From Pedosphaera sp. (GTDB lineage: Bacteria; Verrucomicrobiota; Verrucomicrobiia; Limisphaerales; JADLHS01): 64,000 nt of DNA. This document shows, piece after piece, positions 40,544-49,199 of this stretch; the first letter of the stretch is position 1; each line of letters opens with the position of its first letter. Location: the NCBI GenBank assembly GCA_009695195.1, contig SIBJ01000001.1, forward strand, positions 53,581 through 117,580. The letters run 5' to 3'. The notes under the pieces were generated by a model. The model was not told the DNA's origin. It ran no database searches and saw nothing but the letters and a program-made list of their open reading frames with translations. Position numbers and translations under genes: made by a program.

Positions 40544-41461
40544 TCAGGCCGCGAGGATTTTTCCCAGTCGCGTCGCGAGGTCTTTCAACCCGTCGAGCGT
40601 GCCGCCGCCGCCCTGCTCGGTGATGGCCCAGCCGTGATAGCCCACGTCGTCGAGGGCGCGCAGGACGGTGGGCCAATTGTTTTCACCCTCAAGCAGCGGC
40701 ACATTGAAGCCGGCCCATTTGCCTTCCTTGTCGGCCTTGGTGCGGCTGAATTCCTTGATGTGCAATTTCTGGATGCGCTTGCCGAGCACGCGGATCCATT
40801 GTTCGGGCCAACCGGTGTTGATGACGTTGCCCACGTCGAAATGCCAGCCGACGGCGGGGCTCTTGAATTCGTCCACGAAGCGCGCGGCTTCGAGCGGGCT
40901 GAGGAGGAAATTGTTCCAGACGTTCTCAATGGCGATCTTCACGCCGAGTTCTTCGGCGAGCGGGACAGCTTTGCGGATTTCCGCCTGCGCCCGTTGCCAG
41001 GCGTCGGCATAGGAAACCTCCTTGTTCACGACGCCGGGAACGAGGAGGACGGAGGTCGCGCCGTAGCGTTTGGCGTCGCGGAGACATTGTTTCAACGCGG
41101 CGAGACCTTCCGCACGAATTTTCGGATCGGGATCGGTGAGCGGCTTGGCCCAATGCTGCGCGCCACAGACGCTCGGGATTTCGAGGCCGGCTTCGTCGCG
41201 CGCTTTCAACACTTCGTCCGCGTTCATGTGGCTCATCATCTCGACGCCGGCAAAGCCCGCTTCTTTTATGGCTTTCATCTTCTCGATGATCGAGCCTTTG
41301 AAGCCAACAGTGCCCCACATGATGGCCTTCTCGATTCGGCGCCCAGCCGCCGGCGACGCGGCTTGGTCGCGCGGCGCAACACATCCCGGCGCGACGGCGG
41401 CCACGGCGAGCGTCGCGCCGGTGGCTTTCAAAAAATCCCGGCGGGTGAAAACTGTTTTCAA
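40544..41461 (-). CDS. TAT-signal sugar phosphate isomerase/epimerase (xylose isomerase-like TIM barrel)
   Basis: Twin-arginine motif TRRDFLKATGATLAVAAV; TIM-barrel motifs (GFAGVEM, ENVWN, HIKE). Start proposed at TTG 41461, 20 nt after the upstream stop. Confidence 0.8.
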   Translation of the reverse strand: MKTVFTRRDFLKATGATLAVAAVAPGCVAPRDQAASPAAGRRIEKAIMWGTVGFKGSIIEKMKAIKEAGFAGVEMMSHMNADEVLKARDEAGLEIPSVCGAQHWAKPLTDPDPKIRAEGLAALKQCLRDAKRYGATSVLLVPGVVNKEVSYADAWQRAQAEIRKAVPLAEELGVKIAIENVWNNFLLSPLEAARFVDEFKSPAVGWHFDVGNVINTGWPEQWIRVLGKRIQKLHIKEFSRTKADKEGKWAGFNVPLLEGENNWPTVLRALDDVGYHGWAITEQGGGGTLDGLKDLATRLGKILAA

Positions 41462-41481
41462 ATTTCGAGGCGCGGCGGTGT

Positions 41482-42783
41482 TCAGGTCAGTTTCGAGAAG
41501 CCCGGTACGGCCATCGGCGGGACATCGAGTTTCATTTTCCAATCGAGTTTTTCGGGGACGAGTTGTTCCTCCGAGTTGAACGCTTCCTCCCACGTGACTT
41601 CCTGTCCGGTGTAGGCGGCCATGCGGCCCATGATCGCCATCATCGTGCTGTTCACCATCCGCGTGCTGTCGTTGATCGGTTCGCCTTTGCGAATGCTCGC
41701 GAAGAGTTCGTCGTGTTCCTGTTGATACATATCAACGGGGTTGGGGCCGCGATAACGCCAGGCTTCCTTGCCGTGAATCACGGGTCCGGCGGCGCCGGTG
41801 ATTTTCGCCGTGCCGCTCGTGCCGAGGATGTAATCGGAAACTTCGCCGTGAGCGTTGCTGAGCTGCCGCTGGCCCATGAACGCGCGCACGTCGTTGGGAA
41901 ACTCGTAGGTGACGAAAATATGATCGTAGATGTTGCCCTCATGGTTCGGGGAGTTGCGCCCGCCAACCGCCAGGGCTTTGAGCGGCGAGGTGTCTTTCAT
42001 CGCCCACGCAATCTTGTCCACGCTGTGGACGGCCTGCTCAACCAGGCCATCGCCGGACAGCCAGACGAAGTTATACCAATTCCGCACCTGCCACTCCAGA
42101 TCACCCATGCCAGCCGGGCGCTTGGCGGCGGGCGGCATCGGCTTCACGGGGCCCGCAAAGTAATTGGCATGAACGGCGCGGATTTCCCCGATCGCACCGG
42201 CGTGGATGCGTTGATAAAACTCCCGGCGCGCGGCCTCGTAGCGCCAGCAGAATCCGGCCACGAGCGAAAGTTTCTTCTCCTTCGCCAGCTTACCCGATTC
42301 GATCACGGACCGCACACCCGGCGCATCCGTGGCCATCGGCTTCTCGCAAAAAATGTGTTTGCCCGCCGCCACAGCGGCCTGGAGGTGAACCGGTCGAAAT
42401 CCTGGTGGCGAGGCCAGCAACACCACGTCCACCCCGCTCTCGATGACTTTTTGATACGCATCCAGGCCAACAAAACATTTTTCCGGCGTCACCTTCACCC
42501 GCCCGGGATGCGCCTTTTGCAACGCGGCGAGGCTGCCGTTGATTTTTTCCTCAAACGCGTCGCCCAGTGCGACCAGCACGACATTCTTGTCGGCGTTGAG
42601 CGCCTGGTCCGCCGCGCCCGAGCCGCGCCCGCCGCACCCGATGAGGCCGACGCGGAGGGTCTCGCTGTTTTCGCCGGCAAAAAGTCTCCCGGAGAGAATG
42701 GCGGGCGCGGAAAGAACGGCGCCCGCGGCGGCGGAGGTTTTGAGAAAATTTCGGCGGGTGGTGAGGAGGTCTGGATCAGTCAT
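41482..42783 (-). CDS. TAT-signal Gfo/Idh/MocA family oxidoreductase
   Basis: TTRRNFLKTSAAAGAVLSAP, then the Rossmann motif LRVGLIGCGGRGSG and ...HIFCEKPM. Confidence 0.85.
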   Translation of the reverse strand: MTDPDLLTTRRNFLKTSAAAGAVLSAPAILSGRLFAGENSETLRVGLIGCGGRGSGAADQALNADKNVVLVALGDAFEEKINGSLAALQKAHPGRVKVTPEKCFVGLDAYQKVIESGVDVVLLASPPGFRPVHLQAAVAAGKHIFCEKPMATDAPGVRSVIESGKLAKEKKLSLVAGFCWRYEAARREFYQRIHAGAIGEIRAVHANYFAGPVKPMPPAAKRPAGMGDLEWQVRNWYNFVWLSGDGLVEQAVHSVDKIAWAMKDTSPLKALAVGGRNSPNHEGNIYDHIFVTYEFPNDVRAFMGQRQLSNAHGEVSDYILGTSGTAKITGAAGPVIHGKEAWRYRGPNPVDMYQQEHDELFASIRKGEPINDSTRMVNSTMMAIMGRMAAYTGQEVTWEEAFNSEEQLVPEKLDWKMKLDVPPMAVPGFSKLT

Positions 42784-42871: not shown

Positions 42872-42915
42872 CGCAGAGAAAACAGAAAGCGGCCAACTGA
42901 AATCAGTTGGCCGCT
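42872..42915 (-). terminator. Rho-independent terminator of the Cys-rich protein gene
   Basis: A perfect 12-bp stem AGCGGCCAACTG / CAGTTGGCCGCT (42888-42899 and 42904-42915) with a 4-nt loop. On the minus strand it is followed by TTCTGTTTTCTCT. Confidence 0.65.
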
Positions 42916-42936
42916 TCGTGAAACCCTTACGCCTTG

Positions 42937-43242
42937 CTAGTTCTTCTTATCTTCCTTCTTCTCCGGATTGCATTTTTCGCAGACCTTGCTGTCTTTCGAT
43001 GCTGCCACGCAGCATTTGTGAGTGCACTCCTTGCCCGCCGCAATGGCTTTGTCGCAACAATTATTCGCGTCGGTTTGGCACTTCTCGCACAGCTTGGCGT
43101 CCTTGTGCGCCGTCACGCAGCACTTGTGCTCGCACGCTTTGCCTTTGGCTTTGGCTTTGACGCAGCAACTCTCAGCATAGACTGGACTGGCTAACAGCGC
43201 ACAGGCGAATACCGTAGCAATCAATGTCTTGAACAGTTTCAT
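42937..43242 (-). CDS. Small secreted Lys- and Cys-rich protein with an internal duplication
   Basis: Signal peptide MKLFKTLIATVFACALLASPVYA. The mature part has two copies of CC-x9-C-x3-CC-x9-C-x2-C (CCVKAKAKGKACEHKCCVTAHKDAKLCEKC and CCDKAIAAGKECTHKCCVAASKDSKVCEKC). It has its own terminator. Confidence 0.7.
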   Translation of the reverse strand: MKLFKTLIATVFACALLASPVYAESCCVKAKAKGKACEHKCCVTAHKDAKLCEKCQTDANNCCDKAIAAGKECTHKCCVAASKDSKVCEKCNPEKKEDKKN

Positions 43243-43508
43243 TTTTTTAACCTTTCTCTGATGGTTTGGTTATTTGAACGCACCCGCTTGCTCGGATTTC
43301 CGATACAACTTCCGCCGGACGTAGAGCAATTTGGCAACGGGTGCATTGTATCGGGAAACGGACGGCTGTCCACCCGGTTTTATTCGGTTCGCCAACGCGC
43401 CCGGGCGAAAACACTCCAACAATCAAACTTTGTGAAATTAATCACAAAACGCCTTGCCTCGCCGCCAACGCCTGTTAGCCTCCTCCTAGGCGGTGTTGCC
43501 CGGCTTTT

Positions 43509-44018
43509 ATGCGTTCCCAAACTGAATTTGGCTACGATTCCCGAATCGAGGGGGATGTCATCCACACCCGCGTGGATGCAGCCCTAAATTGGTTTCGCAA
43601 GAACTCCATCTGGCCGATGCCGATGGGGTTGGCGTGTTGCGCCATTGAGCTGATGGCCACGGGCGCGAGCCGGTTCGACATCTCGCGCTTCGGCATGGAA
43701 GTCATGCGGTTTTCACCCCGGCAATCCGACTGCATGGTTGTCGCCGGCACGGTGACCTACAAGATGGCGCTGGCGGTGAAGCGCATCTATGACCAGATGG
43801 CCGAGCCGAAATACGTGATCGCCATGGGCGCGTGCGCCTCGACGGGCGGAATGTATCGGAGCTACTCGGTCTTGCAAGGGGTGGACAACATCATCCCGGT
43901 GGACGTTTACGTGGCGGGCTGTCCGCCGCGACCCGAGGCGTTGCTGGACGCGCTGATGAAATTGCAGAACAAGATTCAGTGCGAGCCGTTGCTGGCGGAT
44001 TTGAAGAAAGCAAGCTGA
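43509..44018 (+). CDS. nuoB: NADH-quinone oxidoreductase subunit B
   Basis: [15 protein letters not shown]...GACASTGG...VAGCPPRPE (the N2 cluster cysteines). Confidence 0.92.
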
Positions 44019-46647: not shown

Positions 46648-46721
46648 TGGTTGCCCGACATGGATTTGAACCATGACAAACAGATTCAGAGTCTGCTGTG
46701 CTACCGTTACACCATCGGGCA
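46648..46721 (-). tRNA. tRNA-Gln (anticodon CTG), 74 nt with encoded CCA
   Basis: The reverse complement folds by hand into a cloverleaf: acceptor TGCCCGA/TCGGGCA (7 bp), D-arm GTGT-AACGGTA-GCAC, anticodon stem GCAGA/TCTGT with loop CTCTGAA, T-arm CATGG-TTCAAAT-CCATG, discriminator A, then CCA. Confidence 0.85.
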
Positions 46722-48504: not shown

Positions 48505-48810
48505 ATGCCCAAGCTTTACGAATACTTCGGATTGATCGTGTTCTTCTACACCAATGAACATGAGCCGATTCACGTTCATGGCGAGTTTCAGAACGGCCAC
48601 GCCAAGGCGGAATTCTTTTTGAAAGAAGGCAACATCGTGCGGATTGTGTTCTCGAACGTGAACGGCAAACGCCCATTGCCGGGATACAAAATGAAGGATT
48701 TCAGAACCTTGGTGAACGCCAAAGCCGACGATATCGTCCGGCGTTGGATTGAATACTTTGTGTTCAAGAAACACAACAAGCCGGAAATCATTACCCGAAA
48801 AATCAAATGA
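48505..48810 (+). CDS. DUF4160 domain protein
   Basis: MPKLYEYFGLIVFFYTNEHEPIHVHGEFQNGHAKAEF matches my recollection of the DUF4160 N-terminal signature (xHxPxHxH). It starts 5 nt after the nuoF stop. The region looks AT-richer by eye. Confidence 0.8.
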   Translation: MPKLYEYFGLIVFFYTNEHEPIHVHGEFQNGHAKAEFFLKEGNIVRIVFSNVNGKRPLPGYKMKDFRTLVNAKADDIVRRWIEYFVFKKHNKPEIITRKIK

Positions 48811-49199
48811 AAGCGCTGGCGACAAAATATTTGGAAATCGTCCAAGCCGGATACGTTTCCGGCTACAAGATTCGATTGACGTTCAATGATGGGCTGGTTC
48901 GCGTCATGGACTTCGAGCCGTTTTTGCGCAAAGCCCTGAACCCCGACATCACAAAATACCGGCAATTTCGGAACTTCAAAAAATTCCATCTGCACTACGG
49001 TGATTTGATGTGGGGAGATTTCGATATGATTTTTCCGATAACGGATTTGCATCGCGGGAACATTCTCAAAGGGGAGGAAGCCGCTCTGTCTCACTTTGTG
49101 TTGAACGACACTGCCGCTCCGGCCAAACCAATTTCGGACAGGAAAACCAAAATTGTTTCTTACCAAAATGTGAAACGGAAAAAAGTTTTGCATGGCTGA
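48807..49199 (+). CDS. DUF2442 domain protein
   Basis: VSGYKIRLTFNDGLVRVMDFEPFL is the DUF2442-type beta motif. It has an ATGA overlap with the DUF4160 gene, which is the usual pairing, and its stop overlaps the nuoG start by 8 nt. Confidence 0.7.
   Translation: MKALATKYLEIVQAGYVSGYKIRLTFNDGLVRVMDFEPFLRKALNPDITKYRQFRNFKKFHLHYGDLMWGDFDMIFPITDLHRGNILKGEEAALSHFVLNDTAAPAKPISDRKTKIVSYQNVKRKKVLHG

Follow-up and report, generated by a model that had tools for sequence, protein, structure and literature searches.

Cox17 uses adjacent cysteines for Cu(I) and its Cx9C pairs for disulfides, and GW modules are an example of the C-terminal, repeated surface-attachment modules of leucine-rich repeat (LRR) proteins. 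To our knowledge, an exported class resembling the metallothioneins is barely known in bacteria. SmtA and MymT likely bind several Zn2+ or Cu+ in thiolate centres, and Csp1 and CopG, which hold Cu(I) on Cys thiolates (CopG with a CxCC motif for a tetranuclear cluster), are exported Cys-based copper proteins and a precedent for such sites outside the cytoplasm (PMC7558416). The Cys-rich YTV proteins are planctomycete cell-wall proteins (PMC8567305). Here, we describe a gene for a small exported Cys-rich protein in a 64,000-nucleotide stretch of a Pedosphaera sp. genome (contig SIBJ01000001.1, positions 53,581 to 117,580), referred to below as the window. We show that the protein carries two copies of a strongly conserved module with seven Cys and one His, and that the same module occurs, singly or in strings, on larger exported proteins. 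We consider it an even chance, judging from sequence, that this module is a metal-thiolate (Zn2+/Cu+) unit with a constitutive role in periplasmic metal binding or buffering. The gene and the parts of its product, including the signal peptide for Sec export and cleavage by signal peptidase I (SPase I), are as follows.

42937..43242, minus strand: coding sequence of 101 codons plus stop, from an ATG start (list of open reading frames (ORFs), homologues, dN/dS)
43174..43242, minus strand: Sec-type (SPase I) signal peptide, residues 1-23, MKLFKTLIATVFACALLASPVYA, with a basic N-region, a hydrophobic core and V-Y-A before E24
43078..43167, minus strand: module copy 1, residues 26-55, CCVKAKAKGKACEHKCCVTAHKDAKLCEKC (motif scan, column conservation)
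43060..43077, minus strand: linker QTDANN, residues 56-61 (alignment)
42970..43059, minus strand: module copy 2, residues 62-91, CCDKAIAAGKECTHKCCVAASKDSKVCEKC (motif scan, column conservation)
42940..42969, minus strand: Lys/Glu-rich tail NPEKKEDKKN, predicted disordered, with a predicted local distance difference test score (pLDDT) below 50 at residues 96-101

The complete protein reads as the signal peptide MKLFKTLIATVFACALLASPVYA, a cleavage site, and the mature part ESCCVKAKAKGKACEHKCCVTAHKDAKLCEKCQTDANNCCDKAIAAGKECTHKCCVAASKDSKVCEKCNPEKKEDKKN, in which the 30-residue pattern CC-x9-C-x-H-x-CC-x9-C-x2-C occurs twice. The original prediction, made from the DNA alone, of a stand-alone gene for a secreted 101-residue protein with a duplicated seven-cysteine motif was borne out: the exact sequence was recovered together with its own predicted promoter and terminator, and the motif scan and composition gave 14 Cys (18%) in the 78 mature residues. 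A six-frame scan of the window with the looser pattern CC-x(7-12)-C-x3-CC-x(7-12)-C-x2-C matched only at 43167 and 43059, both in this reading frame. The mature part also contains 18 Lys and 11 Ala, no Phe, Trp or Tyr, and only 4 Val, 1 Leu and 1 Ile among hydrophobic residues, and its charge is +6.

The signal peptide, judged by eye from its N-region, core, -3/-1 residues and any RR motif, has a Sec/SPase I layout (MKLFK, then TLIATVFACALLA, then SPVYA cut before ES) that is alike in all small family members. A twin-arginine motif is absent from the Cys-rich protein and present in both downstream genes with twin-arginine translocation (Tat) signals. Because the signal is of the Sec rather than the Tat type, the protein would be exported unfolded and any cofactor gained outside the cytoplasm, which excludes pre-assembled Fe-S clusters; an Fe-S cofactor was accordingly rejected for want of a Tat signal. 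Haem c binding was also rejected, as the units end in CEKCQ and CEKCN with no CxxCH. The suggestion that VFAC within the signal peptide might be a weak lipobox failed: compared with the consensus [LVI][ASTVI][GAS]C, its -2 residue is Phe, close homologues carry Gly or Ala in place of Cys14, and what is conserved instead is the A-x-A cleavage site before [EQ]SCC.

A homologue search across 5.8 billion proteins (E <= 0.01) returned 178 homologues, all unnamed or annotated 'hypothetical' and none with a Pfam domain; the few that carry an organism name come from Verrucomicrobia or Limisphaerales metagenome-assembled genomes (MAGs). In all 203 units examined (83 two-unit and 37 one-unit proteins) the seven Cys are invariant, and the His is kept in 200 of them, while Ala5, Gly9, Lys10, Ala20, Lys25 and Lys29 of the unit are near-invariant. 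Aromatic residues are missing after the first CC in 116 of 120 homologues. The linker measures 5-6 residues in 81 two-unit homologues, and the family tails have a median length of 11 residues and contain 28% Lys. The ratio of nonsynonymous to synonymous substitution rates (dN/dS) was 0.05-0.18 against 14 orthologues, for both units, where synonymous sites were not saturated. An identical protein is found on two further public contigs, and a metagenome scan gave at least 434 relatives. The gene is therefore real and under strong purifying selection. We define the C7H module family by the pattern CC-x9-C-x-[H]-x-CC-x9-C-x2-C in an exported protein, of which the window protein has two canonical units. 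The family is strongly conserved and appears common in soil Verrucomicrobiota, and many of the metagenome sample identifiers come from what we take to be Joint Genome Institute (JGI) soil or rhizosphere projects; small Cys-rich proteins of this sort are easily dismissed as annotation noise.

Library searches left the family without a name. No Pfam family matched the window protein at E <= 10, and the only NCBIfam matches (E 0.27 and 7.1) fall far under the curated cut-offs and are not credible. Neither the comparison of the window protein with PDB sequences nor a PDB profile search with the unit profile gave a match, and NCBIfam matches on eight other family members were confined to LRR parts. 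Foldseek against the PDB found no match for the full structure model and only E > 4 for the unit model, and literature searches found no description of the motif or family. The earlier failure to place the protein in a known family thus stands for Pfam, NCBIfam and the PDB, and sequence, profile and structure searches produced no homology to a characterised family that would call for a different function. The family, its fold and its C-terminal use on PSCyt1/LRR proteins are described in no resource queried, and the module is now defined as a portable domain that Pfam, NCBIfam and the PDB lack. A small exported Cys-rich protein that probably binds metal is in itself an already known kind.

AlphaFold2 (AF2) models of the whole protein reached a pLDDT of 71, with about 84 inside the units, and a single unit modelled from 99 aligned units reached 91.3, so that the unit looks like an autonomous module. 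Each modelled unit consists of two short helices (7-8 residues), each starting at a CC pair and followed by a loop; in copy 1 of the window protein they span residues 26-32 and 40-47. The full model shows four short helices and no four-helix bundle. Aligned with each other, the two halves of the unit share CC-x2-A-x3-(G)-K-x-C, which continues as x-H in the first half and as x2-C in the other, and the positions common to both (C1, C2, A5, K10 and C12) are invariant. An hhalign comparison of half against half gave a global P of 0.0013, which is weak because only 15 columns were compared; from its sequence, the unit looks like a duplicated 15-residue half-unit. Lone half-units of the form CC-x9-C-x2-C with exactly 4 Cys occur in three distant small relatives (P0161, P0174 and P0145). 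In these relatives the extra half-unit is N-terminal and reads CC-x9-C-x2-C-H-P, which contains a CxxCH that may be a coincidence or a real haem site and is absent from the window protein.

Each unit offers a Cys3His tetrad and a Cys4 tetrad, and the window protein has four tetrads. The mature part of 86 out of 90 single-unit proteins contains exactly 7 Cys, an odd number, and therefore not every Cys can pair within the molecule. The side-chain charge of the unit averages +2.8 (standard deviation 1.2) and is never negative in the small proteins, with conserved Lys at unit positions 10, 25 and 29 beside the Cys; such a charge would offset that of a [M(II)2Cys7His]3- centre. The invariant seven Cys and near-invariant His, with the His standing at the fourth-Cys position of the half-unit, point to metal, as do the odd Cys count, the lack of aromatics, the conserved Lys, the predicted position of the CC pairs at helix N-termini, the Sec export and the repeated growth in copy number. 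Cys and His are interchangeable as metal ligands and not in disulfides.

Under this metal-thiolate reading, the protein would leave the cytoplasm unfolded through Sec and be cut by SPase I to a soluble periplasmic (or secreted) protein of 78 residues and about 8 kDa. Each half-unit, with its short helix beginning at the CC pair and a loop with C-x-H or C-x2-C behind it, would supply four soft ligands (Cys3His or Cys4), and the four tetrads would bind thiophilic Zn2+ or Cu+ after export. The metal-thiolate centres would hold the fold, with the conserved Lys beside the Cys offsetting their negative charge. The unit would be a portable exported one, free in one or two copies or attached, 1-5 at a time, to the C-terminal end of exported proteins such as the PSCyt1-cytochrome/LRR ones, with a constitutive role in metal buffering, hand-over, or metal-stabilised binding by avidity. 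We favour such a constitutive role over that of an inducible detoxification sponge because of the housekeeping context of the genes and the fusions, both described below. If the protein does bind metal, it would amount to a metallothionein counterpart that is exported and depends on Sec, with a bearing on how uncultured soil bacteria buffer Zn or Cu outside the cytoplasm.

Several considerations weigh against metal binding. The periplasm is oxidising, exported Cys-rich mini-domains are usually disulfide-bonded, adjacent CC pairs are typical of disulfide knots, and the same Zn is rarely bound by two adjacent Cys. Furthermore, about 8 units have N, K, R or M in place of the His, while a Cys is replaced in none, and the placement of multiple copies at the C-terminus of unrelated exported proteins would suit an anchoring or binding module just as well. 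By analogy with Cox17, a mixed state with two disulfides and one Cys3His site per unit is possible, and we count it under the metal reading.

Comparison with the described systems shows partial likeness in each case. Metallothioneins (SmtA/BmtA, MymT) share with the window protein a small size, many Cys, the lack of aromatics, Lys beside Cys and His as an occasional extra ligand, and the mature protein has the low mass, high Cys content and absence of aromatics by which metallothioneins are broadly recognised. However, the known metallothioneins are cytosolic, whereas the window protein has a signal peptide, a rigidly spaced repeat predicted to be helical, and use as a domain in large proteins. 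The bacterial metallothionein family (Metallothio_Pro, a zinc-finger-like fold with Cys9His2) gave no Pfam match at E <= 10, and there was no PDB match although SmtA (1JJD) is included there. Cox17 and the twin-Cx9C (CHCH) proteins of the mitochondrial intermembrane space, in which each Cx9C lies in a long helix of a helix-loop-helix hairpin, resemble the window protein in their CC pair, two C-x9-C spacings (here C27-x9-C37 and C42-x9-C52), small size, Lys richness and oxidising compartment; in contrast, a conserved Gly breaks the first Cx9C of the window protein, its helices have 7-8 residues and the loop between the halves only 4. Membership in the Cox17/CHCH group was rejected on an hhalign probability of 0.7% against human Cox17, the absence of a Pfam match and the short helices.

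Unlike the window protein, a string of 30-residue modules exported through Sec, Csp1 leaves by the Tat route as a four-helix bundle, and CopG adopts a thioredoxin-like fold. A relation to the Csp proteins (DUF326) was dismissed, as no Pfam match, no bundle among the four short helices, no twin-arginine motif and no homology to Csp1 or CopG were found. The small Cys-rich envelope protein OmcA of chlamydiae and the YTV proteins share with the window protein a source in the PVC (Planctomycetes-Verrucomicrobia-Chlamydiae) superphylum, small exported form, many Cys (14 here) and a possible disulfide-linked role in the envelope, but OmcA is a lipoprotein, which the window protein is not, and the Cys spacing differs. 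OmcA (Chlam_OMP3) was rejected because it gave no Pfam match, an hhalign probability of 0.3% and a lipobox Cys14 that is not conserved. The RING C3HC4 cross-brace zinc domain has the same inventory of 7 Cys and 1 His in the order pair, gap, C-x-H, pair, gap, pair, which by analogy only would suggest two metal sites per unit; its pairs, however, are C-x2-C rather than CC, and the C7H unit is exported, has 30 residues and shows no Pfam or Foldseek similarity to it. Finally, the long relatives described next resemble proteins with GW modules (Listeria InlB) or dockerins in being LRR proteins that end in 2-5 basic repeats and might be held at the surface by repeat avidity, although the modules are unrelated in sequence and size, and the attachment role is a guess from architecture.

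The gene is no isolated curiosity: its product is the free version of a module that exported PSCyt1/LRR proteins also carry as a fusion. A 35-column profile built from 99 units and run against 1.84 billion cluster representatives (50% identity, E <= 1e-3) matched 310 of them. These include small secreted forms of 60-140 residues with one or two units, and 41 of the best 145 matches are long exported proteins of 188-1732 residues with 1-5 units, in about 30 of which the last unit lies at most 14 residues from the C-terminus. Pfam found LRR in 28 of the 41 long proteins and PSCyt1 (planctomycete cytochrome c) in 23. Partners seen once or twice are a 3-keto-disaccharide hydrolase, DUF2231, EF-hand, cyclophilin, ThuA, Laminin_G_3, AhpC/Redoxin and PSCyt2 with PSD1; NCBIfam added weak internalin LRR matches, and no library model in these scans covered the unit itself. 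The module extends beyond Verrucomicrobiota, since one long form carries the annotation 'c-type cytochrome [Candidatus Hydrogenedentota]'. The module was seen only in proteins with signal peptides, and its fusion to many exported PSCyt1/LRR proteins favours a generic function, be it binding, anchoring or metal handling.

Two loci link the module to a larger system. At L025 (928-8247) a gene for a PSCyt1-LRR protein with four units is immediately followed by genes for PSCyt1-PSCyt2-PSD1 and DUF1501, and at L024 (496-7130), from a different organism, the equivalent parts are fused into one protein of 1732 residues, followed by DUF1501; the module-bearing protein is therefore tied to the uncharacterised PSCyt2/PSD1/DUF1501 system. 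A more ambitious form of the metal reading, which we hold to be improbable, is that the C7H unit is a new exported metal-thiolate domain of PVC-type bacteria that, free or strung on the PSCyt1-cytochrome/LRR proteins of this system, passes metal ions or electrons, by analogy with free CopZ and the metal-binding domains of copper ATPases. If so, it would offer an initial way into the function of a system that ranks among the largest uncharacterised ones in Planctomycetota and Verrucomicrobiota. Through the PSCyt1-LRR fusions, a biochemical answer for the 8-kDa protein would carry over to hundreds of larger proteins.

The same architecture sustains the strongest competitor to metal binding, which we regard as possible but clearly the less probable of the two. 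The unit could be a metal-free mini-domain with three disulfides and one obligatory free thiol that anchors or cross-links the envelope: long proteins would attach by their C-terminal strings, and the small Lys-rich proteins would be abundant cross-linkers, in parallel with the disulfide-cross-linked Cys-rich envelope proteins of other PVC bacteria. Restriction to signal-peptide proteins, an oxidising compartment and 1-5 C-terminal copies on partners as unrelated as LRR, PSCyt1, DUF1080, ThuA, cyclophilin, EF-hand and AhpC, as in cell-wall-binding repeats, are all consistent with this, as are the CC pairs and seven invariant Cys, which would make three disulfides and a free thiol, the few units in which the His is dispensable, and the constitutive-looking, monocistronic genes among housekeeping genes. 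Cys-rich YTV proteins are moreover known from planctomycete cell-wall preparations (PMC8567305). However, disulfides hardly explain a Cys-to-His swap between the half-units while the supposed partner Cys stays invariant, and simple cross-linking would need neither the invariant spacing nor the conserved Lys beside Cys. The protein is also not a lipoprotein, hhalign showed no homology to OmcA, and YTV and Chlam_OMP3 went unscored in Pfam at E <= 10. Should the module nevertheless be a disulfide anchor, it would be a new component in the pattern of Cys-rich envelopes seen in the PVC superphylum.

We next consider how the gene is expressed and where it lies. Its predicted expression signals are listed here.

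43345..43372, minus strand: predicted sigma-70-like promoter TGGACA-16-TACAAT (-35 to -10: 43372-43345; consensus scan, 10/12 matches)
43243..43338, minus strand: 5' untranslated region (UTR) of about 95 nt, its extent inferred from the promoter position, opening with a long imperfect hairpin
43251..43258, minus strand: ribosome-binding site GAGAAAGG, 8 nt before the ATG, read from the sequence
42876..42917, minus strand: intrinsic terminator with a perfect 14-bp stem, a 4-nt loop and a U-rich run (hairpin 42917..42886; terminator scan, fold)

The promoter columns (-35 GTGGACA, -10 TAnAnT) are kept in the orthologous intergenic regions of L004, L021 and L012, and an AGAAAGG(A) motif precedes the start codon in most orthologous loci. 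The strong terminator that had been predicted is present, with a stem of 14 bp rather than the 12 first counted: 8 of the 14 pairs are G-C and UUUCUGUUUUCUCU follows, as in an intrinsic terminator, and the 69-nt region folds at -32.1 kcal/mol (z = -5.84), which none of 200 shuffles equalled. The 5'-UTR hairpin of the window gene (-20.8 kcal/mol, z = -0.33) is not significant, and Rfam returned nothing credible as a riboswitch or leader RNA of the gene. A different, GC-rich hairpin recurs about 80-89 nt before the ATG in L005, L007, L014, L016, L009, L021, L012, L019, L006, L010 and L002/L003. Its loop is G/U-rich and of the UGRGUG type (UGGGUG, UGAGUG, UGAGUC, UGUGUG or UGGGUAG, in 10-12 related loci), and its outer stem shows compensatory changes among L009, L012 and L019. 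Most of these folds do not differ significantly from those of shuffled sequences, and the window gene lacks this hairpin, having a different one in its 5' UTR.

The impression that the locus is richer in AT proved correct (GC 0.50-0.54 against 0.60 for the whole window) and is explained by composition rather than foreign DNA. The gene has a GC of 0.521 against 0.536 expected from its amino-acid composition and the codon usage of its neighbours, and its GC at third codon positions (GC3 = 0.68) lies inside the range of neighbouring genes, which rules out horizontal transfer as the cause; the dip results from Lys, Cys and Asn codons and intergenic DNA.

A neighbourhood survey covered 19 genome loci, 10 encoding contigs and 80 metagenome loci (about 110 in all). 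The small genes are monocistronic, with flanks of 150-300 bp. Among their recurrent neighbours, GMP synthase stands beside them in 14 loci, peptidase U32 in 10, ribosomal protein S1 in 8, a ThuA-cytochrome c protein in 7 and a member of the sugar-phosphate isomerase/6-phosphogluconolactonase family (PF01182) in 5; an MFS transporter (5 genome loci), DnaN and helicases are rarer. No Dsb protein or maturase recurs in the survey. The family has repeatedly gained copies: in 5 of 18 genome loci (L011, L012, L017, L018 and L019) the two-unit gene has a one-unit paralogue immediately after it, two one-unit genes stand in tandem in 11 of 80 metagenome loci (e.g., L078, L080 and L090), and L093 encodes, beside nuoB, a two-unit protein derived independently from repeats of the one-unit type. 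This independent multiplication (tandem genes, at least two origins of two-unit proteins and 2-5 units in long proteins) suggests that function scales with unit number. In the window, the gene faces nuoB across the following intergenic site.

43509..44018, plus strand: nuoB, divergent from the Cys-rich gene (PF01058 Oxidored_q6, 8.6e-30)
43431-43446: perfect CRP-type palindrome TGTGAAATTAATCACA (TGTGA-N6-TCACA) in the nuoB/Cys-rich intergenic region, about 72 bp upstream of the nuoB ATG

The divergent nuoB had been called correctly in the original prediction, and nuoB adjoins the family gene in 7 of 19 genome and 5 of 80 metagenome loci from several subfamilies. TGTGA-N6-TCACA occurs at this single site in the window, against 0.04 expected by chance. 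The palindrome is found in seven nuoB-adjacent loci, invariant in six two-unit loci and present also in L093. It is missing from four nuoB-adjacent single-unit loci (L078, L080, L082 and L090), and wherever nuoB is not adjacent it does not stand upstream of the Cys-rich gene. Since it travels with nuoB, we assign it to the nuo promoter, as the probable operator through which a CRP/FNR-family protein would act on the nuo operon. A role of nuoB as functional partner was rejected, as we found no evidence for a functional tie and read the adjacency as conserved gene order; it may mark an old chromosomal position.

These surroundings bear on the proposal of a periplasmic metal (Cu, Zn or Cd) sponge or chaperone made in the original prediction. 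Its metal-binding part is still the best-supported reading, while nothing in the surveyed loci points to an inducible metal-stress sponge. We therefore think it unlikely that the protein is a heavy-metal sponge or chaperone induced by Cu, Zn or Cd stress within a metal-resistance response. Its metallothionein-like composition and the expansion of copy number by tandem and internal duplication, as in metallothionein genes, would agree with such a role. However, no metal transporter, metal regulator or resistance gene recurs across the survey (none of the CopA, Cus, Czc, Znu, MerR, ArsR or CsoR type), nor is there a recognisable metal-regulator site, a result that also counts against metal binding as such; GMP synthase, peptidase U32, S1, NuoB and helicases are found instead. 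The promoter spacer is an ordinary 16 bp rather than the 19-20 bp of the MerR type, the only strong intergenic palindrome is CRP-like and goes with nuoB rather than with the Cys-rich gene, and high conservation across many soil MAGs is that of a core-like gene.

Even less probable, and in our view very much so, is a secreted bioactive peptide, that is, a cationic defensin-like antimicrobial, an effector or the precursor of a modified ribosomal peptide. The protein is small, cationic (+6) and Cys-rich with a signal peptide, and repeated Cys-rich units behind a leader resemble multi-core precursors. Yet no maturase, radical-SAM enzyme, protease/ABC exporter or immunity gene adjoins it in any locus examined, the mature part is nearly without hydrophobic residues, so that membrane action is unlikely, the N-terminus is an ordinary signal peptide, and large enzymes and LRR proteins carry the module as a fusion. 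A precursor of ribosomally synthesised and post-translationally modified peptides (e.g., SCIFF/ranthipeptide) was rejected on the same grounds, with no adjacent maturase in any neighbourhood and a signal peptide in place of a leader. Antisense ORFs of 86-97 residues overlap the gene and VFAC loosely resembles a lipobox, but in-frame purifying selection, hundreds of homologues with invariant Cys, a conserved promoter, ribosome-binding site and terminator, and the unconserved Cys14 leave practically no room for a chance reading frame or a lipoprotein.

The remaining features of the surroundings are given below.

40544-42783, minus strand: GFO/IDH/MocA oxidoreductase and xylose-isomerase-like TIM-barrel protein, both with Tat signals, beyond the terminator and on the same strand as the Cys-rich gene
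46648-46721, minus strand: tRNA-Gln(CTG), antisense to the nuo row, between nuoE (ends 46600) and nuoF (starts 47057)
48505-49199, plus strand: DUF4160/DUF2442 pair (101 and 130 residues) set between nuoF and nuoG, with overlaps of a few bases on either side

The oxidoreductase/TIM-barrel pair is syntenic in L004, and from their Tat signals both would be periplasmic, cofactor-bearing enzymes. The TIM-barrel ORF is listed with a GTG start at 41593, which places its Tat motif at residues 49-68; the true start therefore probably lies further downstream. The DUF4160/DUF2442 pair is arranged like a small cassette of two genes sitting within the complex I operon. Additionally, the contigs of L004, L009, L012 and L019 are titled 'uncultured Bifidobacteriaceae bacterium', a taxon label that looks wrong. 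The nuoB of L004, L009 and L012 is 87-94% identical to that of the window, and L004 also has the neighbouring oxidoreductase genes. L019 has no nuoB in the stretch fetched; its two-unit protein is 72% identical over the aligned part and is accompanied by a one-unit paralogue, as in Verrucomicrobia MAGs.

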